From a virus: a DNA stretch of 64,000 nucleotides. The stretch covers positions 96,001 through 160,000 of IMG/VR virus record IMGVR_UViG_3300044856_000216, one strand, 5' to 3'. Below are positions 15,524 to 36,300 of the stretch, piece after piece (position 1 is the first letter of the stretch; each line of letters opens with the position of its first letter). The position numbers and the translations under genes are program-made. Under the pieces are notes generated by a model. That model was not told where the DNA came from and did not search any database. It saw nothing but the letters and a program-made list of their open reading frames with translations.

Positions 15524-15541
15524 TAAGAGAATAACTATATA
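15524..15541 (+). promoter_or_regulatory. GAGAATAA motif copy
   Basis: ATAAGAGAATAACTATATAA, 55 nt upstream of ATG 15582. Confidence 0.5.
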
Positions 15542-15581
15542 ACCAATACAAAAAATAATTATTCAACTTAAAGGAGAAAAC

Positions 15582-16565
15582 ATGAATACATATTTAATAC
15601 CAACAACAGCAGCTTATTGCTATGAACCTTATGATCATATCTATCTTGTATATGCCAACACCTCACTAGAAGCATATAGAAAAGCACAAACAGAATTACA
15701 AGGTAAATACATACCACTAAAATTGCCATTTTATATTTATGAATCATACCCATTTGAATTATATAAACCAGATGACACTGCTACTTTCCCATTTCCAGAA
15801 TCTCAAAAATATGATATACTTACAGAGGCGTTTAAAAATACAAAAGGAGCTGAGCATATGGGACATTTTAATGTAAACTGGAATGAATATACTGAACTTT
15901 TATCTAAAAAAGCAGATAAAGAAATTTGGTCAAATCCGACTTATCCTAATAATGGTATATTAACTAATTATCTAGTTCATACCTATAAACGTCTTAGAAC
16001 AGAAAGACAAATTATAAGAAAAGATAATTATGCTTTATTTAATACAGGACTCTTTACCAAATATTATGAATCAATATATGCATATTCTGACCAGGAGTAT
16101 AATGTATCATTTCTTACTGGACATGAATTAAATCAACATGGAATATCTGAACGTCCACAAAAAGCCAATTATTTTGAAGATCCTTCTCTTCTATTGTTTG
16201 ATTGGCATTACCCAATAGATATACATTTCAAGCATATTTTGGAAGATGAAAAGAATAAAGAAAGATTACCAAAAGGATTTTTAGAAAAAGAAAATAAAAT
16301 GTGTATCTTAACAGGCGCAGTTGAATTAATGAAACGTAGAGTCTCAGCAAATTATAAATTAGCAATTCCACAATGTTACGAAGATAAAATCCAATTATTA
16401 CTTCCATTATGTTTAGATACAGATGAAGGTAAACCAGATCTTGCATTGGCGGTTACAAAATTAGATAATTGTTATCAAGGATATACTTGTTTAACGCTTG
16501 ATATGGCATATAACAATGCTCGTCTCATAGCTAAACCAGAATCAAGTTGGCTATATTCTAAATAA
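15582..16565 (+). CDS. conserved hypothetical protein (C-terminal half resembles a DUF3825-type domain)
   Basis: AAAGGAG-5 nt-ATG; 327 aa. The ...ALFNTGLFT...AIPQCYEDKIQLLLPLCL...LTLDMAYNNARLIAKP pattern is recalled from that family; not searched. Confidence 0.7.
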   Translation: MNTYLIPTTAAYCYEPYDHIYLVYANTSLEAYRKAQTELQGKYIPLKLPFYIYESYPFELYKPDDTATFPFPESQKYDILTEAFKNTKGAEHMGHFNVNWNEYTELLSKKADKEIWSNPTYPNNGILTNYLVHTYKRLRTERQIIRKDNYALFNTGLFTKYYESIYAYSDQEYNVSFLTGHELNQHGISERPQKANYFEDPSLLLFDWHYPIDIHFKHILEDEKNKERLPKGFLEKENKMCILTGAVELMKRRVSANYKLAIPQCYEDKIQLLLPLCLDTDEGKPDLALAVTKLDNCYQGYTCLTLDMAYNNARLIAKPESSWLYSK

Positions 16566-16577
16566 AAATTAACATTT

Positions 16578-16612
16578 AAGACAGATTAATTACTTAGTCT
16601 GTCTTATTTTTA
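16578..16612 (+). terminator. intrinsic terminator
   Basis: AAGACAGA...TCTGTCTT stem followed by ATTTTTAT. Confidence 0.7.
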
Positions 16613-16856
16613 TGCCCAAAATACACCAACACTCTCTAACGTTCGTATTGCCTCAAATAAGCCATTTTAATTTTTAGTCAACAATCTCTCCACACACTTT
16701 CTTTTACATACCTTAAAAGCCAAAATACAAGATTATATTTTTTAACTTCAAATCCCAAACCATACAATATAGCCAAATATATCATCAATAATGCAACGTA
16801 TTTTATACAAAATGTATAACATTCATTCTCATAATACCCTCTACAAGCTGAAAATC

Positions 16857-16886
16857 TACTGTCCTGACAGTGTGTAGAAAATTCTA
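16857..16886 (+). promoter_or_regulatory. 30-nt conserved intergenic element, copy A (hairpin TACTGT-n4-ACAGTG plus AGAAAATTCTA)
   Basis: 25/30 identical to 20794-20823. Confidence 0.5.
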
Positions 16887-17094
16887 ACCTACTACCCTTA
16901 CACTTTATTGGCTAAACAATATATTTTTCAAATCTACTATTCCAATAAGAAAAAATAACAATATATGTAATATGTGCGTATATGCGTATATGCGCCAGCA
17001 TAGATATAGTCCCTTGATAGGGACGGTCTTTTCGCAGCGTTAGCAAGAAAAGAATATCTTTAGGGTAGACAACTGATAACAAGCCAATATCAAA

Positions 17095-17112
17095 ATAGAG
17101 AATAATATGTCA
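17095..17112 (+). promoter_or_regulatory. GAGAATAA motif copy
   Basis: AATAGAGAATAATATGTC, 26 nt upstream of ATG 17124. Confidence 0.45.
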
Positions 17113-17123
17113 AGGAGGCAAAC

Positions 17124-17558
17124 ATGATCAAATTACAAAAATATTCATATCTTTCTCATAAATATTTAATATTAGATACAATTGAAGATTGCTTTTCTAA
17201 AAAAGATCTTAATTTTATGCATATACCACGAGAAGAAATAGGATATATAGAATTTATTCGCAAGGATAAAATCATAATCATTTCATATCTACACATTTAC
17301 ACTTCATATAGACATAAACATTATGGTTATCAGGTAATAGATTATTTATTTTCTCATTATAAGTTCAAATGTATCGTAGGTGAAACTTTAAAAGAATCAA
17401 GAGGATTTTGGAACAAGTGCATACGTAAATATAATGGCATGAGAAGAAATATCTATTACAGTGACAATTGCACTTCATTATTTGTTATTCCAAGACAAAA
17501 AATAAGCTATAAGCAGATATGGGATCTATTGGATTACTCATATAACATAATTTATTAA
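17124..17558 (+). CDS. hypothetical protein (weak GNAT-like motif)
   Basis: GGAGG-5 nt-ATG. ...YLHIYTSYRHKHYGYQVIDYL... loosely resembles acetyltransferase motif A. Confidence 0.65.
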   Translation: MIKLQKYSYLSHKYLILDTIEDCFSKKDLNFMHIPREEIGYIEFIRKDKIIIISYLHIYTSYRHKHYGYQVIDYLFSHYKFKCIVGETLKESRGFWNKCIRKYNGMRRNIYYSDNCTSLFVIPRQKISYKQIWDLLDYSYNIIY

Positions 17559-17621
17559 GAAATATATTGGAATGAATTATGATCAAAAGAGAAAATAATG
17601 TATTAAAAAAGGAGGAATTGT

Positions 17622-17999
17622 ATGATTACAGAAAACGAAATACCAAAATATCTCAAGCAGAAAGAAAGTAATATCTCAAAGAGTAATCGTAAATCAAAGC
17701 ACAAACATCATTATGAAGAATGTCTGATTCAATACAGAACCACATTTATAGGAAAAACTTGTCTTAATACAGGTTTATATACCTACTGTACTATTTGTGG
17801 AAAAATAAATGAGCGATTCAAGGAAAATAAATCTATTGTAAAAGATTATATCAGAACAGTAGATACTCCAATAGGTAAATGTTACTCTCATATTCCTGGC
17901 GAGGAATTATATGAAAAATATCATGACAAATTACCAGTATTCTTTGTAGAGGATATTTTTAAAGAGAAGTATGTTGATTTGGAGCAAAATAATAATTAA
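17622..17999 (+). CDS. hypothetical Cys/His-containing protein
   Basis: AAAGGAGG-6 nt-ATG. ORF track. Confidence 0.7.
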   Translation: MITENEIPKYLKQKESNISKSNRKSKHKHHYEECLIQYRTTFIGKTCLNTGLYTYCTICGKINERFKENKSIVKDYIRTVDTPIGKCYSHIPGEELYEKYHDKLPVFFVEDIFKEKYVDLEQNNN

Positions 18000-18017
18000 A
18001 AAGAGAATAGAATTATA
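18000..18017 (+). promoter_or_regulatory. GAGAATAG motif variant
   Basis: AAAGAGAATAGAATTATAGG. One mismatch in the core. Confidence 0.35.
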
Positions 18018-18117
18018 GGTACGTCATATATGTACCCAAATGAAACCATCAATCCAAAACACCATGTACCTAAATCAATCAATAACAATCAAATAAAAGA
18101 AAGAAGGAATTATTATA

Positions 18118-19119
18118 ATTGGGGTATATTCTATAACAAATTTGAAAACTAAAAAATTATATATTGGAGAAAGTCTTGATATTGATAAAAGATGGATTAA
18201 TCATAAAAATGATCTTTTAAATAACCAACACGCTAATTATTATCTTCAACAAGATTTTAATAAGTTTGGGAAGGCATTTTTTAAATTTGAAGTTCTGCAA
18301 GAAGTTGAAAGAGATAGTATCACTATTACTCAATCCAAATTATTGATGTTAGAAAATGCTTATATAGAAAAATATAAAAATGAAGATTATGAATTATATA
18401 ACATAGAAAATACACTAGAAGATGTTCTTTCAAATAAAAGGAAATTATTGGTTTGCGAAGAAATTGCAAATTATGTTGTAGTGTCTCAATTTTTAAAAAA
18501 TAAATATGTATATGATTATACAAATAAAAGATTTAATTATTGTCAAAGAGATACAATTGAAAATTTAATATTATCTAATTCTTCCATCAAAGGGAAAGAA
18601 AAAGCAAAGCAAGTTGCAAACATAATATTAAAAGAGTTAATTGATCAGAATCTATATGAAAACTTTATAATAGAAAACACTTACTCTATTTATCTATATC
18701 ATAAAATTCAAGAACGTAAAATTATAGAAATTAATTCTAAAGGTCGAGAATATATATTAAGTCATTATGACTTTAATTCGTTTTTATTAAGAAAAAGAAC
18801 TTCTGAAGCCAAATTTTATATACAACAATATCCCTCTGAAAAGAAAATTAAACCAGAAGATCAAAATAGAATACAAGATGTTTGGCATAAACTTAAAGAT
18901 AAATGCATTCTACCACCAGAAAATAAATACAATGATTTTCGAGATATGCTTATAAAATTAAATTTAATTATTATTGATAATAATAAGAGAACACGAGCAA
19001 CTGAATTTGCAATGAAAAATAAATATTTTTTAGTTGTTAAATATAATAAAGCTAAAGATATTTATCAATATGTTATATCTCAAGATGGTTTAAGGTATAT
19101 TTTAGCAAATATAAAATAA
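18118..19119 (+). CDS. GIY-YIG homing endonuclease (I-TevI-like), non-canonical AUU/AUA start
   Basis: (I)GVYSITNLKTKKLYIGESLDIDKRWINHKNDL...YELYNIENT aligns with the I-TevI N-terminus. The GIY motif (18121-) lies upstream of the first canonical start (TTG 18142). The only in-frame candidates after the stop at 18094 are ATT/ATT/ATA/ATT at 18109-18120. Start position is +/-9 nt. Confidence 0.8.
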   Translation: MGVYSITNLKTKKLYIGESLDIDKRWINHKNDLLNNQHANYYLQQDFNKFGKAFFKFEVLQEVERDSITITQSKLLMLENAYIEKYKNEDYELYNIENTLEDVLSNKRKLLVCEEIANYVVVSQFLKNKYVYDYTNKRFNYCQRDTIENLILSNSSIKGKEKAKQVANIILKELIDQNLYENFIIENTYSIYLYHKIQERKIIEINSKGREYILSHYDFNSFLLRKRTSEAKFYIQQYPSEKKIKPEDQNRIQDVWHKLKDKCILPPENKYNDFRDMLIKLNLIIIDNNKRTRATEFAMKNKYFLVVKYNKAKDIYQYVISQDGLRYILANIK

Positions 19120-19315
19120 AATTTTTAAATTTACAGAGTAATTTGTGAAACAAATTGCGCTGTAAATAGTCTGTCTTATTAAATAAGTTATATATCTTCT
19201 TTCAGTTCAGTTGACCTACACAAAAGTGTAGTCAAAATTCTCATATTTTAAAATTGGACGTACACAAAAGTGTAGTTTACTGAACGCTCGTAAAGGCGTT
19301 TCTCTTTAAATAGAA

Positions 19316-19333
19316 ACAGAGAATAAATAAATA
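19316..19333 (+). promoter_or_regulatory. ACAGAGAATAA motif copy
   Basis: ACAGAGAATAAATAAATA, 39 nt upstream of TTG 19358. Confidence 0.55.
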
Positions 19334-19357
19334 TCACATATAAAGGAGTATTTTTAA

Positions 19358-20164
19358 TTGCAACAAAAAATAGAATATTTTACACGTTTCCCTAATGGCT
19401 ATATCCAAGGGAATATCAAAACAAAATATGGAGTTAGTAGGAAATTTTATATCACATACATACTTATAGATAAATACAGATCGTATGAAGACTATAGTTG
19501 GATTACTATTCGTAAAGTAATGGAATTCTATGGCTATAAAACAACCAAACATAAACCAAAAGCATTTCACGAAATTCTCGATGTATTAGAATATATGGTT
19601 AATAATAAAATGATTGAAGTAAAACAAGACCTTGATTCTATAGGATATGATACTGGAATTGAGATTAAGATAATTCCTGAAAATTTTGATCCGTGTAAAG
19701 ATTTTTCAAAACTCACATCATCTCAATATGATTTTATAATGATGAATGAATCTTCTATAAATAGAGAGAATATATTAGTAGCCTTTCTATATATTAATTC
19801 TTATATTTATCTACGACAAAGAGATAAAAATGGCAATGAGCTATCATCAAAACCACAAGACAAGCCAGAAGCCTTTTGGCGAAGTATAGATTCTATGTCG
19901 AAAGAACTTTCTATGTCAAAAGACACAATTAATCAATGTATTCAATATCTCACATCTTCTATTGGCGACAAAGAACCACTTCTAATCAAAAAAGAAGTCG
20001 GTAGTGTTCAGCCTGATCCCAAAAAACCACCACAAAATGTACCAAATATATATGTACTTAATAAAGAAGGATATGAGCAAGAAATTGAATGGGCTATTGC
20101 TAAGATGTTAGAAATCTATAATGTAGACTCATTTGGAGAAATCAAAAACGGCAATAAGTCGTAA
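19358..20164 (+). CDS. hypothetical protein (possible winged-helix DNA-binding / replication-organiser type)
   Basis: AAAGGAG-9 nt-TTG; 268 aa. The function guess is weak. Confidence 0.65.
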   Translation: MQQKIEYFTRFPNGYIQGNIKTKYGVSRKFYITYILIDKYRSYEDYSWITIRKVMEFYGYKTTKHKPKAFHEILDVLEYMVNNKMIEVKQDLDSIGYDTGIEIKIIPENFDPCKDFSKLTSSQYDFIMMNESSINRENILVAFLYINSYIYLRQRDKNGNELSSKPQDKPEAFWRSIDSMSKELSMSKDTINQCIQYLTSSIGDKEPLLIKKEVGSVQPDPKKPPQNVPNIYVLNKEGYEQEIEWAIAKMLEIYNVDSFGEIKNGNKS

Positions 20165-20169
20165 CTAAA

Positions 20170-20187
20170 ACAGAGAATAAACATATG
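20170..20187 (+). promoter_or_regulatory. ACAGAGAATAA motif copy, ending in ATG-TAA
   Basis: ACAGAGAATAAACATATGTAA. Confidence 0.55.
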
Positions 20188-20261
20188 TAACAAATTAACG
20201 CAGCACTCAAAGGAGCTGATCGCAATGAATAATAATTTTAAAACAAAAGGAGAACTAATTA

Positions 20262-20462
20262 ATGAACAGAACTGTAACTATCGAGTCAAAGAACCATAAA
20301 TATGCAAATACATATGGGGGAAATATTTGTATATCAGATTTTTGCACTAATTATGAAGGCAGTCGAAATATTGCAGAACGTATTGAATCTAATTGGCGAT
20401 TTGATAAGGAACATGCAAGAAACAGAGCTATATTAGATGATTATAAGGAGAGACAAAAATAA
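20262..20462 (+). CDS. hypothetical protein
   Basis: AAAGGAG SD. ORF track. Confidence 0.55.
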   Translation: MNRTVTIESKNHKYANTYGGNICISDFCTNYEGSRNIAERIESNWRFDKEHARNRAILDDYKERQK

Positions 20463-20770
20463 TGGCAGATATAAATATGAGTGTATCAATTGAGGAGCAG
20501 GAAATTTGTATTAATGCAATGCGTGATGAAAAGTTTGCAACAATATATGCTTCCGATTCTACATATATTACGAAATTGGACAAGTTATGTAAGGAAAGCC
20601 CTGATATGTACTCTCTTATCGAAGATACAGGTAGAGGTAAAAAATATTTATTAAAGGATAAAACGCTTATCAGCTTTAGGGCAAAGAAAACAACAAGAGT
20701 TATGACAGATGAACAAAAGAAAGCTTCTGCTGAAAGACTCCGCAAGGCTCGTGAGAATAAAAGTGTCTGA
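20462..20770 (+). CDS. hypothetical protein
   Basis: TAATG overlap with the previous gene. ORF track. Confidence 0.6.
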   Translation: MADINMSVSIEEQEICINAMRDEKFATIYASDSTYITKLDKLCKESPDMYSLIEDTGRGKKYLLKDKTLISFRAKKTTRVMTDEQKKASAERLRKARENKSV

Positions 20771-20793
20771 GATACCCTTTCTAGCCAGAAATT

Positions 20794-20823
20794 TACTGTT
20801 CTGACAGTACACAGAAAATTCTA
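20794..20823 (+). promoter_or_regulatory. 30-nt conserved intergenic element, copy B
   Basis: TACTGTTCTGACAGTACACAGAAAATTCTA. Confidence 0.5.
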
Positions 20824-21489: not shown

Positions 21490-21607
21490 GAAAAAGATAA
21501 AATGGATTATTTATAAGCTTGATAGATTTGTACCTAAGATACATGACTTGCCTGACGTTGTGTATATTAAGTGGATGGGCGAAGAGTTCATTATTAAGAA
21601 GTATTAA
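21476..21607 (+). CDS. 43-aa hypothetical protein
   Basis: Own translation: AAAGGAGATGTCGT-ATG, MSWIKKKIKWIIYKLDRFVPKIHDLPDVVYIKWMGEEFIIKKY*. Confidence 0.4.
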   Translation: MSWIKKKIKWIIYKLDRFVPKIHDLPDVVYIKWMGEEFIIKKY

Positions 21608-21625
21608 ACGGAGAATATATAAATG
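21608..21625 (+). promoter_or_regulatory. GAGAATAT motif copy, ending in ATG-TAA
   Basis: ACGGAGAATATATAAATGTAA, 41 nt upstream of ATG 21652. Confidence 0.5.
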
Positions 21626-21651: not shown

Positions 21652-23079
21652 ATGGTCAATTATGAACCAGAGTTAATGTACGCATTGGATTCTAAAGGTG
21701 AATATGCTGATTGGAAGAATGTTTACAATGTAAGTGGCAGTGACGTACTTTATTGTCCTATTTGTTTAGGAAGAGTCAAACTTTGGAATGGACAAGATCC
21801 AAATAAGACCTATCAAAAACAAAGATGTTTTCATCATATTGATGGAATGTGTTCACAAGAAAGTAGAATCCATTTTGCTTATAAAACATGGTTACTTAAG
21901 CAAGGAAGCAAATTTAAAGTAGGTGAAACTATATATGAAGTTACTAATTCAGAAATCGAAAAAACGTTTCATACTAAATTTGGTGGCTATCGCCCTGATA
22001 TTACTGTAGAAACTACAGAAGGAAAAAGCTTTTATATTGAAATAGCAGATACAAATAAGAAAACCAATGATTATATCGAAAAATGGGATGAGCTTGGATG
22101 TGATGTTTTGGAATTAGATGTAAATGAACAGCTAATAAAAGCTACAATCGCAGGAATTCCAGAATTTAACATCATCTACTCTTCTTCTACTGGCGAATGT
22201 TATATTAAACATTATACGAGACAAGATTATGATGATTTAATCACAGAAAGAAAAATTTATTGGAAACGAAAGGGTCTTATCAAATATAAAATCCAATGGG
22301 AACGATTAGATTGGTTTTGGAAAAAACTCCAAGATTTTTATTCTGGAAATTCTAAAATTAATGTTTTAATTGATGCATTTAGGCAAATGGATTCTGAAGA
22401 CCAACGTTTTATATGTAAAAGGATGCGAGGAAAACACTCATCATTAAAATATGAATTAGAGAATAATTATACTGATAAAAAAGATATTGAAAAAGCTCAT
22501 TTACAACATATTAGTACCACTATTAAAAAGCTTAACCAGGAATTTGGCTATAGTAGTTCTAATCCTTTAGATAGTACATATTTATTTAGAAAAGATAAAC
22601 ATGTTATTTTTAAAGACAGTCCAATATGGGAAAACCGTTCTTATTTATATATTTATAATTATATTACTGAAGAAGATGTTTATAACTATTTTCATCCAAT
22701 TATGGAAGAATATTACAAGGAGCACACAATTCCATTATTAGAGAGTATCCAAAAAAAGAAAATATGCTTTGAAGAAAATGAAAACTATATAAATAACTAT
22801 TTTATTCCTAAATTCAAAAAAATACAAAAACAAATTAATAGATGTTCTAACACTTGTTGGTATGTTAAAAGTTCTGTTACTGTTTATGGATATACTCATG
22901 AATTTAAAATAATTATTAAATTTTTAAATTGTTTTGAGGAACATATATATTTGAATTTTAATGAAAAATCTCAGAATAATATTGATATTAAAAATCTTAT
23001 ATCTTCTAAAATGAATAATATGATTGCTAAAGCAAAAGAAGGATTAAATAGTAATATTAGAATTATGGAGGAACGTTAG
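21652..23079 (+). CDS. CoiA-like (PD-(D/E)xK nuclease-fold) N-terminal domain protein, 475 aa
   Basis: LYCPICLGRV...CFHHIDGMCSQESRIHFAYKTWLL...GGYRPDITVETTEGKSFYIEIADTNKKT...LGCDVLELDV follows the CoiA family pattern. The C-terminal 300 aa are unassigned. Confidence 0.65.
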   Translation: MVNYEPELMYALDSKGEYADWKNVYNVSGSDVLYCPICLGRVKLWNGQDPNKTYQKQRCFHHIDGMCSQESRIHFAYKTWLLKQGSKFKVGETIYEVTNSEIEKTFHTKFGGYRPDITVETTEGKSFYIEIADTNKKTNDYIEKWDELGCDVLELDVNEQLIKATIAGIPEFNIIYSSSTGECYIKHYTRQDYDDLITERKIYWKRKGLIKYKIQWERLDWFWKKLQDFYSGNSKINVLIDAFRQMDSEDQRFICKRMRGKHSSLKYELENNYTDKKDIEKAHLQHISTTIKKLNQEFGYSSSNPLDSTYLFRKDKHVIFKDSPIWENRSYLYIYNYITEEDVYNYFHPIMEEYYKEHTIPLLESIQKKKICFEENENYINNYFIPKFKKIQKQINRCSNTCWYVKSSVTVYGYTHEFKIIIKFLNCFEEHIYLNFNEKSQNNIDIKNLISSKMNNMIAKAKEGLNSNIRIMEER

Positions 23080-23080
23080 T

Positions 23081-25948
23081 ATGACAAACAATAACGGAGT
23101 TTACATACCATCTATTGATGCAAAGGATATTTATTTATCAGCACATTACATTGAGGAAAATCCAGAAGGATATAATTTAAAGCTTAAAGATGGACAATAT
23201 AATTTACGAAAATTTATTAACACACTTGATTATAGCTTGGATCTTATAGAACTAAAAGATATTTATTATAGAAAATTCAGGAAACATGATTTTTCATTTA
23301 GAATTAAAAAACACGATTATTCTGTAAATGTAATTAATCTCACATTTAAGTATTCTGTAAAAGAATGGAATCAGATGAACAAAAATACTTTTGTCAGACT
23401 TGGATACGATTATAGGAATCTCTCTTTCGAAGATGGTATTGCTAAAAATAGTGAAGGTGAAATTGTCGGAATTAAGACGAATGAAAAAATTGAAAACCCA
23501 ATTGATATACCAAAGCCATTTGTTAAAAAGCAGGTAAATATCTATGATAAAAAGGATAAAACTGTTATTAAAGAGATTCAAAAGCAGTACCATAAAAAAG
23601 GCGAACCTAAGACTATAAAGACAAATGCAGAACTTAGAACTGAGTTGTATAAAGATGGATTTATCTGCAATGGTACTAAATATTGTCGAATGAAACGCTC
23701 TACTGGTTCAGCAAGAGTTGGTAAATGTCTCTTTATCAGAGAAGATTTATATGAACCAATTTTAAAATTCAGTTCAGGCGGTCTTAAATACAGCCAAGGA
23801 GATCCGATTGATTTAGCTGCATATGAGGGATATATTGCTCTCCCATCTAGTAGCATTATTGATACCATTCCAATTAAACCAGAAAATATTCTTTTAATTG
23901 ATGATTATGACAGCGTGTTTAATGAGGACGTAATCGAGACTCATGATGAAGATGGATGGCTTAAAACTACTGAAAAGAATTGTGAAATTACAAATACAAT
24001 TTGGGATGGTCAGTCTCTTATGGATATATCTCTATTTGGTGATTATTCAGAATATGGTATGCTTCTACTTAGAAATCTAATGTTCAAGTCTTGTTGTTTC
24101 AACTGTAATATCCAACAATGGTTTAAAGATAATAATATAACAGATGTGTCTCAGCTTAATGGTAAAACAAGAGCTACACGCATTGAAGATGTAAAGTTAA
24201 TTACCACACCTAACAGTATTAAATATTTGAAATTTAGTACATGGGATGAATGGCTTGACCACTTATATCCTGATTTTGGTGTTGTAAAGCATGATAAGAA
24301 AACTCACTTCTTTGGCGGTCGTTTGGTACAGACTCATTATCAGTTGCTCAATACCCTTCAGATGTCAAAAGATGAAGTAAGAGAATTCTTGCAAGAATCA
24401 TTTGACTTCGCACAAATGCTTAGAGATAGACCAGAAGTTGTACGCTATTACATTAAATATCCTGATATTGATGAAATGTCACCTATGGATAAACCTATGA
24501 GTAGCAAGAATGATGTGGTTTATAATTTAATGTGTGTAAATGATAATTTTACCAAGACAAAATATTATCAAGACTTTTTACATGATTTATTGGCATCATA
24601 TTACAAGAATCTTAAAAATGGACATATTTATGTAAATGGCAATTATTCTACTCTTCTTGGTAATCCAATAGAGATGCTACAGCAATCAATCGGTAAGTTT
24701 GAAGGAAAAAGTCAAATTGGAATTGGTAATATACATAGTACACGCTTTGAATATAATAAAACTCTTCTTGCCAGTCGTTCACCTCATGTTACAATTGGAA
24801 ACATTTGGCTTCCATATAATACAGAGAATAAATTGATAGATTGCTATCTCAATCTTACAAATGAAATTGTGTGTATTAATTCCATTGGAGAAAATGTATT
24901 ACAGAGACTATCGGGTGCTGATTTTGACAGTGATACAGTAATGTTGACAGATAATGAAAAACTCATTCGTGCAGCAAAAAGAAACTATCAGTTGTTTAAA
25001 ACACCAACTGCGAATGTTGATTCTACGAAGAAAAAAAGATATTATACACCAGAACAGCAAGCAGATCTTGACATCAAAACATCTGTAAATAAAATCGGTG
25101 AGATTGTTAATCTATCTCAGGAATTAAATTCTTTACTTTGGGATAAGATGTATCATGGTGCTACTTATAATGATATTAGGGAGTTATATTATGATATATG
25201 TCAATTAGATGTAATGTCTGGAATTGAAATTGATAAGGCAAAGAAAGAATTTATTATCAACAACGGTAAAGAGTTAGATAAACTACGTGAAAAGTATGAT
25301 GAACTTTTGCGTGAGTATGAAGAGAATGAAGAAGGCGAATTAGTAAGAGGCAAAAAGCGTATGCCACACTTCTTTTCTCATATTTCTAAGCAAAAGGGAT
25401 ATTATAATCCTGATAAAAAACATTATTGTAAATGTCACACTTCAATGGACTATTTACAGACTATTATTAATGGATTCAAAATTAAGAATCCATATAAGAA
25501 GGATTGGCTTCCATTTGTATCTATATTAGACAACTCTTTATTTAGGACATCTAGCATAAATCAAAAACAGATAAATCGAATTTATAGTATTTTAAAGAAA
25601 TACATAAATGAAAGGAAAAATATATTTGCCATTGATTCTGACTCAAAAGAAGAACGAAATGATAAAGCAAATAAGCTTAAAGTTGATTTAATTGCAGATA
25701 TTGAATCAGAAACAATTGGTTTTTCAACATTATATCGTTTACTTTCTTCTCTTGAAGATAAAGAAAATTCTCAAATCAAAAATCTTTTATTAGAAGTTTT
25801 GTATCTTTGTGGTAATGATAGTTTTAATAAAGCTGTTATCCAATCTAAAAATGAAATTCTCCAATTAGAAGATAATGGATCTGACATTAAATTATTTAAT
25901 ATTGGGTTTAAAATTACAAAAAAACAAGTAAATTCGGAAATCGAGTAA
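23081..25948 (+). CDS. YonO-like single-subunit two-barrel (DPBB) DNA-dependent RNA polymerase
   Basis: SRSPHVTIGN (nt 24773-24802) lies ~40 aa upstream of GADFDSD (nt 24914-24934). This is the same arrangement as NRAPTLHRLG...NADFDGD of RNAP beta-prime and of YonO/RdRP-type enzymes. 955 aa. An HU-like gene lies downstream, as with yonN/yonO in SPbeta. Confidence 0.75.
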   Translation: MTNNNGVYIPSIDAKDIYLSAHYIEENPEGYNLKLKDGQYNLRKFINTLDYSLDLIELKDIYYRKFRKHDFSFRIKKHDYSVNVINLTFKYSVKEWNQMNKNTFVRLGYDYRNLSFEDGIAKNSEGEIVGIKTNEKIENPIDIPKPFVKKQVNIYDKKDKTVIKEIQKQYHKKGEPKTIKTNAELRTELYKDGFICNGTKYCRMKRSTGSARVGKCLFIREDLYEPILKFSSGGLKYSQGDPIDLAAYEGYIALPSSSIIDTIPIKPENILLIDDYDSVFNEDVIETHDEDGWLKTTEKNCEITNTIWDGQSLMDISLFGDYSEYGMLLLRNLMFKSCCFNCNIQQWFKDNNITDVSQLNGKTRATRIEDVKLITTPNSIKYLKFSTWDEWLDHLYPDFGVVKHDKKTHFFGGRLVQTHYQLLNTLQMSKDEVREFLQESFDFAQMLRDRPEVVRYYIKYPDIDEMSPMDKPMSSKNDVVYNLMCVNDNFTKTKYYQDFLHDLLASYYKNLKNGHIYVNGNYSTLLGNPIEMLQQSIGKFEGKSQIGIGNIHSTRFEYNKTLLASRSPHVTIGNIWLPYNTENKLIDCYLNLTNEIVCINSIGENVLQRLSGADFDSDTVMLTDNEKLIRAAKRNYQLFKTPTANVDSTKKKRYYTPEQQADLDIKTSVNKIGEIVNLSQELNSLLWDKMYHGATYNDIRELYYDICQLDVMSGIEIDKAKKEFIINNGKELDKLREKYDELLREYEENEEGELVRGKKRMPHFFSHISKQKGYYNPDKKHYCKCHTSMDYLQTIINGFKIKNPYKKDWLPFVSILDNSLFRTSSINQKQINRIYSILKKYINERKNIFAIDSDSKEERNDKANKLKVDLIADIESETIGFSTLYRLLSSLEDKENSQIKNLLLEVLYLCGNDSFNKAVIQSKNEILQLEDNGSDIKLFNIGFKITKKQVNSEIE

Positions 25949-26390: not shown

Positions 26391-26414
26391 AATCAGCTTT
26401 TCTTGGCTGATAAA

Positions 26415-26432
26415 ACAGAGAATAATAAAATG
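26415..26432 (+). promoter_or_regulatory. ACAGAGAATAA motif copy, ending in ATG-TAA
   Basis: ACAGAGAATAATAAAATGTAA. TTGGCT lies 17 nt upstream of TAAAAT in this copy only. Confidence 0.55.
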
Positions 26433-26532: not shown

Positions 26533-26606
26533 AGCGGAATGACGAGCAATGGAAGCTCACTTGGCTCATAACCAAGAGTATGCAGGTTCGAGTCCTGTTT
26601 CCGCAA
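26533..26606 (+). tRNA. tRNA with CAT anticodon, initiator-like (A1:A72 mismatch)
   Basis: AGCGGAA-TG-(AC)GAGC-AATGGAA-GCTC-A-CTTGG-CTCATAA-CCAAG-AGTAT-GCAGG-TTCGAGT-CCTGT-TTCCGCA-A. Two extra nt precede the D-stem. Confidence 0.75.
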
Positions 26607-27435
26607 CTCTCCTACTTGTAGGCGGCAGGTTTCGTGTCGTTAAATAAACTTAGCAATAAGGATAAAGCAGGAATGTCTTTAGTTTGCATAAGACACTGCG
26701 ACTGCGCATAGTAGTTTGACGGAAAACACAGATAATCTATACCAAACCTAAAATCAGAGGGCTACTGCTAATGATATGGCTTGGTAGGGGTGATGAAAAA
26801 CGCCCTGTATTAACATGGAAACATGGGTATAATTACTGTCTTATTGGTGCGATTTCCGCAAGAAAAAGTGCTGATATTGATTGTTGTAATGTTTCTTAAT
26901 GCGAAAGCAAGGAACAGAACAATAAAGCAAGTCGATAGCAAGACGAACAGAATGGTGATGATTGGGCTGTACTCAAAAGGTACAGATGGTCAAATGTACA
27001 CCTCATCGTTCATATCATGCAAAAACAAATTACAACATACTTTTGAAATAAAAATATAATGCATATTTATATTAAAAGCAAATTAATATTTAAAGAATAA
27101 GCAAAAGTGTGTATGACCGCAAAGAGACAAACAACTTATTCATCTGCAATATGATGACATATAGCACTCGCAAGGTACTATATGAGAAAATACAAGTAGA
27201 CGCAACCGTAAGAGATTTGCACTCTCTGAACCCCGCAAGGGACGATGTATCGAAAGGAAATCTATAATGCTTTGTGGTAAGAGTTTGCCAATTTTCGCAA
27301 AATTGGTGTTGTTGTTACCTACAGTCTAATCGACTGTGTGATAAATTGTGTCCAACCACAATAGATGGTAACGTGTTAGGTCAATATCTCAGCCTAAAGA
27401 AATAAAGTCTCATACTTCGGTATGGGATTTTTTTA
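26607..27435 (+). ncRNA. candidate large structured non-coding RNA (~830 nt; GOLLD/ROOL-like genomic context)
   Basis: No SD-led ORF. Flanked by two tRNAs. Many short helices with GNRA loops and several perfect 6-8 bp hairpins. Ends at a UUCG-loop terminator. Confidence 0.45.
27408..27435 (+). terminator. intrinsic terminator (UUCG tetraloop)
   Basis: TCTCATAC-TTCG-GTATGGGA followed by TTTTTTT. Confidence 0.8.
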
Positions 27436-29221: not shown

Positions 29222-29860
29222 ATGCCTATGAATAAAGATTATTTACAGTTAGAGTTTGATAATTTAGGAAGTGAAGCAAATTACAAACTTGCAGATCCGA
29301 CTCTTGTTGATTATTATAAGCGATTAAATAATCGTGAAATTCTTATTAATCAGGATATTGATGACGGAATTGTAGAATGGACTCAAGAAATAGTTGAATG
29401 GAATAGAGAAGACAAGGATATAGCGATTGCCGAAAGAAAGCCAATTAAGATTTGGATTAATTCAAATGGTGGTTCTCTTAATGCAATAAACGAGCTTATT
29501 AATATCTGTAATCTTTCTAAGACACCAGTTTATGCTATTGGAATGGGAAAATGTTACTCCGCAGGAGGGCTTTTGCTTATGGGTATTCCAAGGGGTAACA
29601 GATATATTTTGTCATCTACTGAAGCACTTATTCATGATGGCTCTACAGGCAGTTACGGAGACACTGGCAAGGTACTTGATGATTTAGAGAGAACTAAGAA
29701 AATTGAGGAAGATACAAAACAGTTTATTTTAAGTCATACAAAGATTACTGAGAGTGAATATGATAAAAATTATCGTAAAAATTGGTGGTTAGATGCTAAC
29801 GAAATTATTGAAAAAGGCGTGGCTGATCACATTATTACAAATATTGAGGAATTATTTTAA
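29222..29860 (+). CDS. ClpP-family serine protease
   Basis: GKCYSAGGLLLMG (Ser), LIHDG (His), WLDANEIIEKGVADHII (Asp region). Confidence 0.8.
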   Translation: MPMNKDYLQLEFDNLGSEANYKLADPTLVDYYKRLNNREILINQDIDDGIVEWTQEIVEWNREDKDIAIAERKPIKIWINSNGGSLNAINELINICNLSKTPVYAIGMGKCYSAGGLLLMGIPRGNRYILSSTEALIHDGSTGSYGDTGKVLDDLERTKKIEEDTKQFILSHTKITESEYDKNYRKNWWLDANEIIEKGVADHIITNIEELF

Positions 29861-29887
29861 GGAGAGCGCACTGCTCTCCTATTTTAT
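29861..29887 (+). terminator. intrinsic terminator GGAGAGC-n5-GCTCTCC-TATTTTA
   Basis: Read directly from the sequence. The same stem recurs at 56861. Confidence 0.7.
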
Positions 29888-29909
29888 TGGAGAAAAAGGA
29901 GATTGAAAA

Positions 29910-31493: not shown

Positions 31494-31645
31494 TTTTTGG
31501 TTAATGAAACCACTATCAGAGGGAGTGTACCTTATATGGACGCTACCCTCTTATTATTTTGGCAATAAATTAAAATATTGCCGAAAAAATATAAATAAAG
31601 CACTCAAAAAAATATAAATGAAGATTAAAAGGAGATTTTTGAACA

Positions 31646-31933: not shown

Positions 31934-31944
31934 TCTGAAAGGTC

Positions 31945-32547: not shown

Positions 32548-32554
32548 ATTATTT

Positions 32555-32587
32555 AGAGTGTGTGGTGTATGCTACGCACTCTTTTTG
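32555..32587 (+). terminator. intrinsic terminator
   Basis: AGAGTGTG...CGCACTCT followed by TTTT. Confidence 0.65.
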
Positions 32588-32590
32588 TAT

Positions 32591-32674
32591 GGGTGGATAT
32601 GCCTAGAGGCGAGGGCAAGAGACTGTAAATCTCCCACATAAGAAACACCGTAGGTTCGACTCCTACTCCACCCA
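32591..32674 (+). tRNA. tRNA-Tyr (GTA), long variable region
   Basis: GGGTGGA/TCCACCC acceptor, TGCC/GGCA D-stem, CTGTAAA anticodon loop, GTAGG-TTCGACT-CCTAC T-arm. The 15-nt variable region shows no obvious stem. Confidence 0.8.
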
Positions 32675-32865
32675 CTATTGTCAGAAAGAGAAATCTTTCT
32701 TCTATTAAGAACATCCATATAAGGAGCGTATGGCGGTGAGTTGACATCGTTAACAACTTGGGTGAACCTCAAGAGTGGTCAAGAGTGATAAAAACTCTTA
32801 TAAAAGTGTAAGGCTTTTGTATAATGGGCAAGCATTTAAAATCAATTACATAGTAAATAAATTAG

Positions 32866-32904
32866 AGAAGCGATTTAGTCCACTACTATCTCGCTTCTTT
32901 TTGT
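32866..32904 (+). terminator. terminator-like hairpin upstream of int
   Basis: AGAAGCGA...TCGCTTCT followed by TTTT. Confidence 0.5.
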
Positions 32905-32926
32905 ATACGAAAGGAAGTGAGATTTA

Positions 32927-33961
32927 ATGAGTAGAAAAATACAACACAATAATATTGTTACTGATGAGTTATTGACTCAGTGTAATAAAGAGAATATAGA
33001 GTTAGGAAATGATTTTTTGGATTATCTTCGTTCAGTTGATAGATCCCCAAATACAATCAATGCGTATAGACGTGACCTTTACATTTTTTGGGTTTATCTA
33101 CTTCAGCATTGTGACAACAAATTTTTTATTGATTTATCTAAAAGAGACATTGCTCGTTATCAGAGTTTTTGTCTTACTGAATATAAATGGTCGCCAGCTA
33201 GAATGCGTAGAGTAAAATCTACTCTCTCATCGCTTTCAAATTATGTAGAAGCTATATTGGACGATGAGTATGAAAATTTTAAACCAATTATACGCAAAAT
33301 TGAAAATCCTGCAAATGAAAAGGTATTCACTAAAACTGTATTATCTGATGAGCAAGTACAGGGAATGCTTGATTATTGGGTTGAAAAAGGTAAATATGAC
33401 AAGGCTTGTATTTTAGCATTAGCTGCATTTAGTGGCAGACGTAAGAGTGAGTTACCACGATTTAAAGTATCTTATTTCGATGATGAAAATATCATATACG
33501 GTTCTTTATATAAAACACCTGAAAAGATCCAAACAAAAGGAAGAGGATCTCGCGGAAAAATGTTAGTGGCATATACACTTGCAAAACCATTTAAGCCATA
33601 TTTCGATTTGTGGATGAATTATAGAAAAGAACACGGAATTGAATCAGAATGGTTATTTCCCAAAAAAGTAAATGGAGAATATATAGATGAACCTATGGAT
33701 TCAAGTACTCTTGACAGTTGGGCTGATACATTTAGTAAGCATTTAGGAGAAGACTTCTATTTCCACAGTCTTCGTCACTTCTTTACAACTTCTTGTTCTC
33801 GAAGCGGTCTTCCTGATGATGTAATTCAAATGTTAGTCGGTTGGAGTTCGCTAGATATGGTATCAGTGTACAAGGATATTGATGCAGATGAGCAATTTGC
33901 AAAATATTTTGCTGATGGAGAAATAAAACAAGTAGAACAAAAATCACTTTCTGATTTGTAG
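32927..33961 (+). CDS. int: tyrosine recombinase / integrase (XerC/D-like)
   Basis: ...FHSLRHFFTTSCSRSGLPDDVIQMLVGWSSLDMVSVY... (R-H-R-Y catalytic region). N-terminal SAM-like domain pattern. Confidence 0.85.
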   Translation: MSRKIQHNNIVTDELLTQCNKENIELGNDFLDYLRSVDRSPNTINAYRRDLYIFWVYLLQHCDNKFFIDLSKRDIARYQSFCLTEYKWSPARMRRVKSTLSSLSNYVEAILDDEYENFKPIIRKIENPANEKVFTKTVLSDEQVQGMLDYWVEKGKYDKACILALAAFSGRRKSELPRFKVSYFDDENIIYGSLYKTPEKIQTKGRGSRGKMLVAYTLAKPFKPYFDLWMNYRKEHGIESEWLFPKKVNGEYIDEPMDSSTLDSWADTFSKHLGEDFYFHSLRHFFTTSCSRSGLPDDVIQMLVGWSSLDMVSVYKDIDADEQFAKYFADGEIKQVEQKSLSDL

Positions 33962-34276
33962 AAGATGCTGATAAAGCTTTTTGTTTAACACTTCGAATAA
34001 ATACTATACTGTTATCAGTATTTATAGGTATGCTTAATCCTAAGTTATGTAGCGAAAAAAGTGAAAGAAAGCACTTACAAATGAACAAAAATCGTTAGAG
34101 GTTTTTACTAGGGCGGTGCGTGCATTAAACTAGATTTGAGCTTTTGTAAAAAATATCAGATATTTTTTAAAGAAACAACAAGGAAGCATGAATGGATTGT
34201 CTAACTTTCTATTCTAAATAACTGGATGTGTACAGTCCAATATCAGCTAGTTAGTGCTTTATGCTGATTTTCTAAT

Positions 34277-34351
34277 GGATCGTTCGCCTAGTTGGTTATG
34301 GCACTACCCTGTCACGGTAGAATAACATGGGTTCAAGTCCCATACGATTCG
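34277..34351 (+). tRNA. tRNA-Asp (GTC)
   Basis: GGATCGT...CTGTCAC...ATGGG-TTCAAGT-CCCAT-ACGATTC-G; clean cloverleaf. Confidence 0.9.
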
Positions 34352-34355
34352 TTTT

Positions 34356-34426
34356 GGGGCATTAGTCAAAAGGTAAGACAACGGGTTTTCATCCCGTGAG
34401 TATCGGTTCGAGTCCGTTATGCCCTA
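34356..34426 (+). tRNA. tRNA-Glu (TTC)
   Basis: GGGGCAT...ACGGG-TTTTCAT-CCCGT...ATCGG-TTCGAGT-CCGTT-ATGCCCT-A. One T-stem mismatch; short D-arm. Confidence 0.8.
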
Positions 34427-34490
34427 TTATAATTACCATTTAGGAATTTAACCTATATAAATAATTATTATATGTAGAGGAGCACATATT

Positions 34491-35252
34491 ATGGCATTAA
34501 TTGATAAATATACAAATGATGAATTCATAGATTTTGTAAAAAATTCTTTTTCTTATCGAGAATTAGCAAGAAAAATTGGATATAAATCTTATTCTGGTGA
34601 TTTATCTCAAATATTAAAAAATAAAATTTTTGAATTGAATCTTTCTACAAATCATTTTGAAAGAGATAAAACAAAAGATATTACTAGAACTTTTGATAAT
34701 ATTTTTTGTAGTAATTCAACGGCAGATCAGAAAACATTAAGAAAGTGGTATTTTGATGGACATTATACCCCTTATAGTTGTAAAATATGTGGTCAATTAC
34801 CAGTTTGGAATGGAAAGGAATTAGTATTAACTCTTGATCATATAAACGGAAATAATCATGATGACAGATTGGAAAATTTAAGATGGGTATGTCCAAATTG
34901 TGATAGACAGTTAGATACTTTTGGTGGGAAAAATATAAGTAAAAAAAATAATAAGAAATATTGTTTAGATTGTGGAATTGAAATTGGCAAAAAATCTACT
35001 TATTGTAAAAAATGTTCTCCTAAACATCGTAAAAATTTATACGAAGTAAAATTAAAAAAATCTGTGTTATATGAATCAGGTATCACTAGAGATAGATTAA
35101 AAGATTTGGTGCGCCAAAAATCTTTTGTAGATATTGGAAAAATATACGATGTATCAAATACTACAATAAAAGAATGGTGTAAAAAATTTAATTTACCATT
35201 TAGAAAAAAAGAAATTGAATTATATACAGATAACGAATGGGAAAATATATAA
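34491..35252 (+). CDS. HNH homing endonuclease inside the tRNA cluster
   Basis: LDHINGNNHDDRLENLRWVCPNCDRQL HNH core, plus extra Cys pairs. Confidence 0.85.
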   Translation: MALIDKYTNDEFIDFVKNSFSYRELARKIGYKSYSGDLSQILKNKIFELNLSTNHFERDKTKDITRTFDNIFCSNSTADQKTLRKWYFDGHYTPYSCKICGQLPVWNGKELVLTLDHINGNNHDDRLENLRWVCPNCDRQLDTFGGKNISKKNNKKYCLDCGIEIGKKSTYCKKCSPKHRKNLYEVKLKKSVLYESGITRDRLKDLVRQKSFVDIGKIYDVSNTTIKEWCKKFNLPFRKKEIELYTDNEWENI

Positions 35253-35473
35253 TTCAAGAACGAAATGCTGCGTTCAAGTCACGCCAGAGTCATTGTGCGG
35301 TAAACCTGATGTGAAAACCTATTTTTTGGATGCATACGAAATTTAGGTGTGTAAGCTCAACACTTGCTACCGCCCTATCAAATTATCCGTGGGCAACAAC
35401 TACGCAGATTATTTTGATAAAGTCGTAATGAAAATAGTTTCATTTAGTTTAGAGAAAGATAATTTTTTAAGAA

Positions 35474-35506
35474 AAGAGTCATTTCCTTTGGAGATGGCTC
35501 TTTTGT
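35474..35506 (+). terminator. intrinsic terminator
   Basis: AAGAGTCA...TGGCTCTT followed by TTGTT. Confidence 0.55.
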
Positions 35507-35511
35507 TATAT

Positions 35512-35585
35512 ACGTCTTTAGTTTAATTGGTTAGAATATCAGACTCCAAATCTGAGAGATGTGGGTTCGACTCCTACAGGGCGTG
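35512..35585 (+). tRNA. tRNA-Trp (CCA)
   Basis: ACGTCTT...TCAGA-CTCCAAA-TCTGA...GTGGG-TTCGACT-CCTAC-AGGGCGT-G. Confidence 0.85.
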
Positions 35586-35672
35586 TTTGTGTCAACTAAG
35601 ATATATGCATATTCTTAGACTATACTGGTGTATAGGTGGCACTAAAACTGTGACGACAGTTGACTTGTTTAT

Positions 35673-35687
35673 ATGGTTCAAATCCAT
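35673..35687 (+). ncRNA. orphan T-arm-like motif ATGG-TTCAAAT-CCAT
   Basis: Canonical T-loop, but I could not fold a complete cloverleaf around it. Confidence 0.3.
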
Positions 35688-35757
35688 TCGCCTTATATAT
35701 GAAAGAAATGAATGTGTAAATTTTAAGTATGATATAAGGTCAGGCGTTGGTATAAGC

Positions 35758-35772
35758 GAGGTTCAATTCCTC
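35758..35772 (+). ncRNA. orphan T-arm-like motif GAGG-TTCAATT-CCTC
   Basis: As above. A possible acceptor, TTTAAGT/ACTCAAG, gives only ~60 nt. Confidence 0.3.
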
Positions 35773-35823
35773 TACTCAAGTCTTGAATGTGTGAATTGCA
35801 CTTTCATTGGAAAGGAGAATTGT

Positions 35824-36000
35824 ATGGTAGGTATTAAAATTTTTGATGAGAACAAAATTGATACTTCGTCTACTGAAATAAGAGAAAAAGTGGCTAAAGC
35901 AATTTCAGATTATGTTTTTGATAATTGGTATGATGTTGTTTGTATTGAAAATTCGGATGATACTGAATGTCATGAAGTATTATTTAAAGTAACACTGTAA
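35824..36000 (+). CDS. 58-aa hypothetical protein
   Basis: GAAAGGAGAATTGT-ATG. This is the 3-prime part of track ORF 35527-36000, whose 5-prime part crosses tRNA-Trp. Confidence 0.5.
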   Translation: MVGIKIFDENKIDTSSTEIREKVAKAISDYVFDNWYDVVCIENSDDTECHEVLFKVTL

Positions 36001-36222
36001 TTAGCCATTTGATTTAAAAATATTTCTTCTTCCACATTTATTGCATATCACACTTAAAGTATAAGTGTTATCTTCGTTTCTGCTTATTTTATTTGCAGAG
36101 CATACTTCTGTATTTATTTTTTCTACAACAAATCTATTGGAAAGTGCATGTTGTGGAACTATATATTCCCACTCTAATTCTGTATTGCAATTTTCGCAAT
36201 TTATTTTTCCTGATAGTTTCAT
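36001..36222 (-). CDS. zinc-ribbon small protein
   Basis: CENC...CNKC. An isolated minus-strand gene. Confidence 0.6.
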   Translation of the reverse strand: MKLSGKINCENCNTELEWEYIVPQHALSNRFVVEKINTEVCSANKISRNEDNTYTLSVICNKCGRRNIFKSNG

Positions 36223-36282
36223 TTTTATATTCTCCTGTTACTTGGGTTGGATTAATTATAATTCATGATTTTGAAAAATGCA

Positions 36283-36300
36283 ACAGAGAATAAATATATA
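36283..36300 (+). promoter_or_regulatory. ACAGAGAATAA motif copy
   Basis: ACAGAGAATAAATATATAG. Upstream of the HNH/terminase block. Confidence 0.55.

Follow-up and report, generated by a model that had tools for sequence, protein, structure and literature searches.

A short motif that recurs between the genes of a phage lineage abundant in human gut metagenomes (>100 contigs) is probably a phage-specific promoter that lacks a -35 element, and the sequence patterns described below place the likely start of transcription at a purine at about +15 of the motif. The stretch of DNA analysed is a 64,000-nucleotide (nt) window of the virus record IMGVR_UViG_3300044856_000216 (positions 96,001-160,000; 32% G+C), and coordinates are given as window positions. 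Within the motif, +1 denotes the first G of the core and R(+15) the proposed start. The window also encodes a single-chain RNA polymerase of the YonO family (23081-25948), and we tentatively suggest that this enzyme is the one that reads the motif.

The motif was detected by k-mer enrichment on gene-oriented intergenic DNA and by an iterated position weight matrix. In an unbiased k-mer count, the core GAGAATAA ranked first among intergenic 8-mers (11 regions, compared with 0.75 expected), and the only words found beside it in this ranking were Shine-Dalgarno words. The window contains 20 exact cores, while shuffled sequences contain 5.5 +/- 2.4 and none of 100 shuffles reached 20; the longer 11-mer ACAGAGAATAA occurs seven times, including one intragenic copy at 24821, where 0.17 occurrences are expected, which bears out the over-representation proposed in the initial annotation of this DNA. 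Twelve of the 20 cores fall in the 18.5% of the window that is non-coding, and all 12 are oriented like the flanking genes, as had been claimed for the intergenic copies; the other eight are intragenic and occur without the flanking pattern. The exact plus-strand cores named in the initial annotation lie at 15527, 17098, 19319, 20173, 26418, 36286, 62187 and 62494, those on the minus strand at 1900-1907, 4407-4414, 8702-8709 and 10574-10581, and the position weight matrix recovered two variants with one mismatch each, at 18003 (GAGAATAG) and 21611 (GAGAATAT); all of the coordinates listed there were correct. Intragenic cores at 20753 and 22459 were absent from that list. The further claim that there are no copies in the late structural block holds for the extended motif but not for the bare 8-mer, which is found there at 38239, 48178 and 60065 (+) and at 41283 and 44331 (-), in each case inside a gene and lacking the flanks.

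Comparison with related phages defines the extended motif and shows which parts of it are retained. The closest GenBank record is MT835469, a 176-kilobase (kb) phage from human faeces with a polymerase that is 80% identical, and IMG/VR holds 109 relatives with polymerase identities of 58-97%. When open reading frames (ORFs) were called in 78 IMG/VR loci (polymerase gene +/- 10 kb) and in MT835469, and non-redundant intergenic GAGAATA sites were collected, the resulting 258 sites showed a 225:33 bias for the gene strand and gave the consensus AAAnR-GAGAATA-W-N5-T(+14)-R(+15). The upstream flank consists of AAA at -5 to -3 and a purine at -1 in 93% of sites (A in about two thirds, G in one third), and the downstream flank has A/T at position +8 and A at both +11 and +12, followed by T at +14 in 72% of sites and by a purine at +15 in 86%. 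Upstream of the AAA the 258 sites contain no conserved block, and no AGGA at -13 to -22, so there is no -35 block, in agreement with the initial annotation.

The motif is also conserved at orthologous intergenic positions, where the first two bases of the core vary (GAGAATA, GGGAATA, GCGAATA, TAGAATA), GAATA and the T14-R15 pair persist, and +9 to +13 drift. For example, sites orthologous to the copy at 20168-20187 read GAGAATA, GGGAATA or GCGAATA, and include one at 169194 (-) of MT835469, and the copy at 21606-21625 is kept 5' of the orthologous gene in more than 20 distinct relatives, with T14-G15 constant and +9 to +13 variable. The copy at 26413-26432 is found in close relatives ~475-490 nt past the polymerase gene with its T14-G15 kept, and relatives keep the core of the copy at 19314-19333 5' of the orthologous gene with differing flanks. 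At the copy that heads the late block, the start of the downstream leader, GCCAACTATGAGAGGATTG, is single-copy in 62 IMG/VR contigs and is preceded by the 16-nt sequence A(A/C)AGAGAATAAATATATA in 49 of 49 distinct contexts, and several unrelated classes of sequence lie 5' of core position -5. Since conservation in these 49 contexts begins exactly at the motif, the motif is the first element of a conserved module.

The extended motif appears to be a property of this lineage. A scan of IMG/VR for ACAGAGAATAANNANAT returned mostly chance hits among the matches listed, and of the contigs sampled with an exact copy among these matches, only relatives of this phage had several strand-coherent copies; in the same set the density was 0.40 per kb in relatives compared with 0.13 per kb in unrelated contigs, a value that corresponds to the seeded match alone. 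The density also differs among clades with similar or orthologous polymerases. A small-gene module in IMGVR_UViG_3300045988_138242 (146989-160639) contains at least 11 same-strand copies in 13.6 kb, several of which have a ribosome-binding site right at +15 and lack an evident start codon (ATG, GTG or TTG) at the spacing normally seen.

The position of the start follows from the relationship between the motif and the translation signals downstream of it. The distance from the core to the start codon is rarely less than +24, is mostly +40 to +50 and extends to several hundred, and this variability speaks against a function in translation. The earliest ribosome-binding sites start at ~+12 to +16, and in several independent sites they start exactly at +15 or +16; that of gene 17124, for example, begins at +16 of the copy at 17093-17112. 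Taken with the T/purine pair at +14/+15, these positions point to a 5' end at about +15, so that GAGAATAW itself would occupy -14 to -7. The -10-like part of the promoter is therefore probably the GAGAATAW core and not the downstream A/T-rich hexamer that had been proposed for this role, because a start 7 nt past that hexamer would remove the ribosome-binding sites at +15/+16. The promoter reading of the initial annotation is otherwise supported, as the motif is strand-specific, intergenic and conserved, lacks a -35 block, contains a fixed T/purine pair and occurs in a perfect copy 118 nt before a tRNA-Met gene. In addition, some copies follow strong terminators (17098, and 62187 past the hairpin at ~61890), where a new start is needed. 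No hairpins occur in the motif region from -16 to +11 and no Rfam covariance model matches it, the six tRNA genes being the only Rfam models that reach the gathering score in the window. A histogram of hairpin starts downstream of the motif has a weak bump at +16 to +18, which is unusable as evidence for the 5' end.

The lack of a -35 element also means that the motif is not a sigma-A promoter. If GAATAW is aligned as a sigma-A -10 hexamer, the A at -11 is invariant, but -7 is A or T about equally often in the 258 sites; if the downstream nnAwAT is used instead, -11 is not A and the ribosome-binding sites are cut off. Sigma-A hexamers are depleted in the intergenic DNA of the window (TTGACA, 1 observed vs 4.3 expected; TATAAT, 12 vs 20), and scans for consensus housekeeping promoters gave no more matches than in shuffles. 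The best housekeeping-type promoter lies at 11479-11507 (-), with TTTACA, a 17-nt spacer containing TG, and TATTAT, 5' of a Cro/CI-type helix-turn-helix gene (11160-11462).

In the mechanism that we propose, a compact promoter of ~20-22 base pairs (bp) without a -35 element, specific to this phage lineage and with GAATA as its indispensable part, would direct initiation at the purine 15 nt after the first core G. About a dozen copies would drive non-structural transcription units on both strands, including the tRNA unit and the polymerase operon, and a single copy, followed by a conserved structured leader, would drive the 25-kb late block.

The individual copies and the features around them are collected in the table below. 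Genes run leftward below ~14 kb and rightward above ~14.4 kb, and the copy at 15522-15541 is the first one rightward of an origin-like divergent region. The copy at 19314-19333 is preceded by a hairpin and T-run at ~19270-19300. Two minus-strand sites, at 4414 and 10581, are doubtful family members, and the latter (10567-10586) is probably not a member. It opens a 46-codon ORF, just as GGAGAATA-N5-ATG opens longer ORFs at 36234 (-) and at several sites in relatives, and ribosome-binding sites of this GGAGAATA class should be excluded from the motif family. The 46-codon ORF (MGAIKYNAIRIAKQL...; 10430-10569, -) is unannotated and has a strong ribosome-binding site that mimics the motif. Past the tape-measure gene, ~1.3 kb (61808-63100) lacks a long ORF and contains two copies (62184 and 62491) with a stable hairpin directly after each one; the motif-hairpin units are candidate small RNAs.

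Table. Copies of the motif, the YonO-family polymerase gene, and the late leader, late block and terminator-like hairpins of the window
Feature	Position	Strand	Context
Motif copy (ACAGAGAATAA)	1893..1912	-	After the stop codon of 1912-2157; hairpin replaces its 3' half
Doubtful copy	4400..4419	-	Core in the loop of a terminator-like hairpin (GGCAGTTAG...CTAGCTGCC, then T-run)
Motif copy	8695..8714	-	Directly after the stop codon of 8710-9630
Look-alike (AAGGGAGAATAAATAAATG)	10567..10586	-	Ribosome-binding site and start of a 46-codon ORF
Motif copy (TAAGAGAATAACTATATA)	15522..15541	+	55 nt 5' of gene 15582-16565 (DUF3825)
Motif copy	17093..17112	+	After two terminator-like hairpins (16577-16606, 17009-17024)
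Variant motif copy (GAGAATAG)	17998..18017	+	After the stop codon of 17622-17999
Motif copy (AAACAGAGAATAAATAAATA)	19314..19333	+	25 nt 5' of the start of gene 19358-20164
Motif copy	20168..20187	+	5 nt past the stop of 19358-20164, 5' of 20262-20462
Variant motif copy (GGAGAATAT)	21606..21625	+	41 nt 5' of the operon of 21652-23079 and the polymerase gene
YonO-family single-chain two-barrel RNA polymerase	23081..25948	+	955 amino acids; phrog_8308, E-value 1e-94
Perfect-consensus motif copy	26413..26432	+	5' of tRNA-Met (26533-26607); preceded by a 7-bp hairpin (26392-26411)
Terminator-like hairpins with T-runs inside operons, before the late block	27404-27431, 29860-29898, 32555-32582		
Motif copy heading the late block	36281..36300	+	Putative start at A36300
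Conserved structured leader	36300..36455	+	Between motif and first late gene; 5' hairpin, large helix, U-rich tract
Leader outer stem, version 1			GGAGTGAGA / TCTCTCACTC
Leader outer stem, version 2			GGCAGTAGA / TCTACTGC
Leader outer stem, version 3			AGAGAAGA / TCTTCTCT
Leader outer stem, version 4			GGATGGAAGA / TCTTCCATC
Late structural block (terminase, portal, tape measure)	36456..61807	+	No copy of the extended motif; at least six internal terminator-like hairpins
Terminator-like hairpins with T-runs, late block	44534-44554, 46236-46272, 50535-50557, 52532-52550, 56861-56883		
Hairpin with T-run	~61880-61918		Precedes the motif copy at 62187
Perfect-consensus motif copy	62182..62201	+	ORF-poor region past the tape-measure gene; 5' hairpin directly after
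Motif copy, GGAGAATA class	62489..62508	+	Hairpin beginning at +15

The leader of the late unit is itself conserved. Its 5' hairpin begins at nt 3, after A36300 (GCCAACUAU...AUAGUUGG), and its large helix (GAGTGAGA...TCTCTCACTC) is followed by a U-rich tract and then by a ribosome-binding site. The outer stem exists in four fully compensated versions among the relatives and, by eye, an inner segment of the leader is complementary in each version to a stretch past the U tract. This layout of promoter, leader and terminator could serve for attenuation, for antitermination by an RNA acting in cis or to block the host polymerase; it bears on the mechanism without settling it.

Terminator-like hairpins are not confined to the leader. 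Several of the internal ones share a common sequence (GGAGAGC..GCTCTCCTATTTTATTGG) with a ribosome-binding site directly after it, and two of the internal ones lie no more than 10 nt before the tRNA-Lys and tRNA-Tyr genes with no motif after them. Because no promoter follows these internal terminators, the transcribing enzyme must read through such hairpins, and terminator read-through inside operons must be the rule.

The description of the 23081-25948 product as YonO-like is confirmed by the phrog_8308 match, by 23% identity over 600 amino acids (E-value 1e-17) to the YonO homologue of the SPbeta-type phage BUCT082, and by the alignment of its metal-binding motif GADFDSD with GSDFDYD of that homologue. 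The intragenic ACAGAGAATAA at 24821-24831 of the polymerase gene is kept in most relatives. The YonO type comprises the smallest RNA polymerases known to be related to the cellular ones. YonO itself lacks the flap domain required for hairpin-dependent termination; in SPbeta, the late genes form one operon that YonO transcribes from a single start site, with the promoter undefined and with both the enzyme's recognition sequence and the need for a helper protein left open (PMC5467207). No later account of the recognition sequence was found in the literature searched.

Two genes near that of the polymerase were considered as possible partners. A 475-amino-acid ORF (21652-23079) ends immediately next to the polymerase gene, its stop codon falling 1 nt short of that gene's start, and a 515-amino-acid ORF overlaps the yonO homologue of BUCT082 in a comparable way. 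By eye, both proteins have an N-terminal CPxC and an RPDI...E.E motif and the look of a CoiA-type nuclease. A role of the 21652-23079 product as a specificity subunit was rejected, as BLASTP finds no similarity to the BUCT082 ORF. The 268-amino-acid product of gene 19358-20164 has more than 1000 homologues, is conserved adjoining the polymerase and is encoded between two motif copies. It has two predicted winged-helix domains (predicted local distance difference test score, pLDDT, 66), and its best fold matches are of the RepE/MarR/ScpA type, none of them significant. A homologue carries a Joint Genome Institute (JGI) label as NusG, which would have implied ops-like recruitment of an antiterminator, but the predicted fold has neither an NGN nor a KOW domain and this assignment was discarded. 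A conserved element, TTTACTGAACGCTCGT, with a hairpin before it, lies 5' of this gene (19240-19300) and next to a GIY-YIG endonuclease gene (18142-19119). In some relatives the homologue forms the C-terminal part of a longer ORF; possible explanations are a split gene or the insertion of an intron or homing endonuclease.

The depleted sigma-A hexamers, the lack of a detectable sigma factor, the terminators inside transcription units and the finding that motif-rich, strand-coherent loci in the IMG/VR sample belong to relatives of this phage are pointers to the phage polymerase as the reader of the motif, and a YonO-type reader would explain passage through hairpin-plus-T-run terminators with no promoter downstream. 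A search of ~48 proteins of the window and 91 mid-size proteins of MT835469 revealed no sigma factor, although Pfam could miss a diverged phage sigma; it gave one weak r4_2/HTH_38 match and no Sigma70_r2-type protein. A more specific form of this proposal, advanced with some reserve, is that the motif is a consensus that the YonO-family polymerase reads directly, sigma-free and through a -10-like box, with terminator read-through allowing a single copy to serve the 25-kb operon, and it may then be the first promoter consensus for the YonO type. A host multisubunit polymerase with an alternative sigma fits about equally well, and this arrangement deserves to be taken as a genuine, if not the leading, possibility: a sigma of the sigma-H/ComX type, or a diverged phage sigma of the T4 gp55 kind, would use the same promoter and start, GAGAATAW would be an extended -10 box that needs no -35, and the YonO-like enzyme would use other signals. 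Several observations weigh against the phage enzyme and, for the most part, in favour of the host enzyme. The geometry is that of a sigma-dependent promoter, with an 8-bp box that spans -14 to -7 and has A at -11, then 6 nt of spacer and a pyrimidine at -1 (T) followed by a purine at +1. The GAATA core is that of sigma-H and SigX boxes and fits the sigma-H -10 consensus, RnnGAATww, and GCGAATA is among the variants at orthologous sites. The streptococcal SigX box, TACGAATA, is likewise a -10-only element with GAATA, and its distance from the ATG is 17-30 nt (PMC6001120). A copy of the motif also stands ahead of the polymerase operon, so the polymerase would first have to come by another route, and most copies are placed before non-structural genes and small ORFs, a position typical of early genes, whereas YonO of SPbeta serves late genes only. 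In MT835469, with its 80% identical polymerase, there are few copies, no k-mer enrichment and no late leader, so motif abundance does not simply follow the polymerase, and abundance likewise differs between clades with orthologous polymerases; Enterocloster phage PMBT24, with a YonO-like polymerase that is 22% identical, has no GAGAATA enrichment. In the crAss-like phage phi14:2, the over-represented motif is a host-polymerase promoter and the two-barrel phage polymerase has no detectable motif. The terminator-like leader right after the late copy is more typical of antitermination of a host polymerase, and recalls lambda PR'-tR'. On the other side, the sigma search described above offers no candidate beyond its weak match, the flank carries an A-tract instead of the SigX T-tract or the sigma-H AGGA -35, and GAATA mostly follows a G with an A before it, rather than a C. 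A host enzyme would, moreover, stop at the internal terminators unless antitermination exists, and a conserved leader is found only in the late unit.

Outside the promoter readings, the main alternative is an RNA-level signal, a processing or stability site in polycistronic transcripts at which cleavage at U14/R15, by a host RNase or by the beta-CASP RNase J-like enzyme of the phage (27873-29195), would generate defined 5' ends. The sense-strand, intergenic location of the motif, often directly past a stop codon, the hairpins that start at +15/+16 after several copies, and the beta-CASP RNase gene are all compatible with it, and the constraint on ribosome-binding sites would be expected equally. 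We consider it improbable: copies past strong terminators or at the heads of units have no transcript to process, bacterial endonucleases do not usually recognize 15-20 nt that lie entirely 5' of the cut, the motif is not part of any RNA structure, its -16 to +11 region being free of hairpins, and the abrupt onset of conservation in mosaic contexts is what a motif that opens a transcription module would show. A still smaller probability attaches to an oriented site for a phage DNA-binding activator or repressor rather than a polymerase recognition element. The tandem winged-helix protein 19358-20164 would be a candidate occupant, given the two copies that flank its gene and its conserved place adjoining the polymerase, but its structure model is of moderate confidence and none of its fold matches reaches significance, each site is single and asymmetric with a fixed phase to the T/purine pair and the ribosome-binding sites, and no separate promoter element is visible beside them. 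A translational reading, which takes in the start-stop mini-ORF raised by the initial annotation, would have a Shine-Dalgarno-like GAG or GGAG followed by AUG, whether or not a stop codon comes directly after it. The annotation's observation of six copies in the window with ATG at +13-15, three of them ATG-TAA (20185, 21623 and 26430), is accurate, and GGAGAATA-N5-ATG copies are sometimes genuine ribosome-binding sites (10581 (-), 36234 (-) and MT835469 33006). Among the 258 sites, however, only 45 (17%) have ATG at +13 and 17 (7%) have ATG plus a stop, the latter mostly orthologues of one site; the ATG arises because T14 is followed by a purine that happens to be G. In addition, most copies read AGAG, a poor anti-Shine-Dalgarno match where real sites in this phage read AAGGAGG, a separate strong ribosome-binding site follows each copy, and one copy precedes a tRNA gene, so that the mini-ORF proposal is hardly credible.

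Other features of the window include genes annotated as a beta-CASP RNase, a tyrosine recombinase, a GIY-YIG endonuclease, a prohead protease, an exonuclease, an HNH endonuclease and an HU-like protein. Two perfect DnaA boxes (TGTGGATAA), together with related repeats, point to a possible replication origin in the divergent region (14900-15050 and 15160-15520) that separates the leftward from the rightward genes, and a ~360-nt tract that is nearly free of G on the plus strand adjoins the boxes. A 35-nt repeat, 83% identical between its two copies (16852-16886 and 20789-20823), occurs in two intergenic regions and contains the palindrome ACTGTYCTGACAGT.

The motif makes the open question of how YonO recognizes promoters directly testable. 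This lineage offers about a dozen near-identical candidate sites per genome plus a natural series of variants, so a single purified protein and a handful of templates could answer the question. If YonO reads the motif directly, it would be the first promoter defined for the family and would show how a polymerase without nearly all accessory domains finds its starts. If instead the host polymerase reads it with a sigma-H/ComX-like factor, it would represent a class of GAATA box without a -35 in a large phage that avoids housekeeping promoters. The motif also provides a way to mark transcription units in these uncultivated phages.

By analogy with known systems, the motif would work like a -10-only phage promoter, such as the T4 late promoters or the SigX box, or like the compact promoters of phage-encoded polymerases. 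T4 late promoters (TATAAATA) consist of an 8-bp -10-only element at ~-13 to -6 that is used by the gp55-modified host polymerase. They share with the motif a -10-type-only element that serves phage takeover of transcription, but their sequence differs and no homologues of gp55, gp33 or the clamp loader were seen in the window. The SigX/ComX box and the sigma-H -10 resemble the motif in having an 8-bp -10-type box with GAATA and in their geometry relative to the proposed start, and the SigX box also in its lack of a -35 and its similar distance to the start codon. They differ in that the core here is A-G-A-G-AATA and not T-A-C-G-AATA, in the upstream A-tract in place of a T-tract, in the absence of an AGGA -35, and in that no sigma-H-family gene occurs in the phage sequences scanned (the window and MT835469). 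GAATA is invariant, a purine precedes the core in 93% of sites, where the sigma-H consensus has its R, and CGAATA is only a rare variant. Overall, the motif appears to fail two of three testable features of sigma-H/SigX promoters.

The late promoter of SPbeta, P_YonO, is a comparison within the same polymerase family, as the polymerase here is a YonO homologue (PMC5467207). In both phages a gene for an HU-like protein separates the polymerase gene from the late genes, and a single start and a long structured leader precede a very long late operon. SPbeta has one late-only promoter, in contrast to the approximately dozen copies here, which mostly precede non-structural genes. P_YonO is defined by its start site alone, with its sequence determinants undefined. 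The BUCT082 region of ~190 nt that is bracketed by published P_YonO primers contains no GAGAATA, the exact start not having been placed within it, and this P_YonO-homologous region is not conserved in four other YonO prophages.

Among phages with their own polymerases, the promoters of T7-class and P23-45 enzymes are, like the motif, short conserved sequences that abut the start and are repeated before many phage genes. The T7-type polymerases bear no relation to the present enzyme. P23-45 has two two-barrel polymerases (virion and non-virion), each with its own motif assigned by chromatin immunoprecipitation sequencing (ChIP-seq) and 5'-end mapping; these motifs differ in sequence from the one described here. 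The middle and late promoters of crAss-like phi14:2 are also over-represented, sense-oriented intergenic motifs in a phage that encodes a two-barrel polymerase, and, like those of this phage, they are found 5' of polymerase, DNA-bending-protein and tRNA genes. Unlike the motif, which has no -35 block, they consist of -35 and -10 blocks that are used by a host sigma-70-type holoenzyme.

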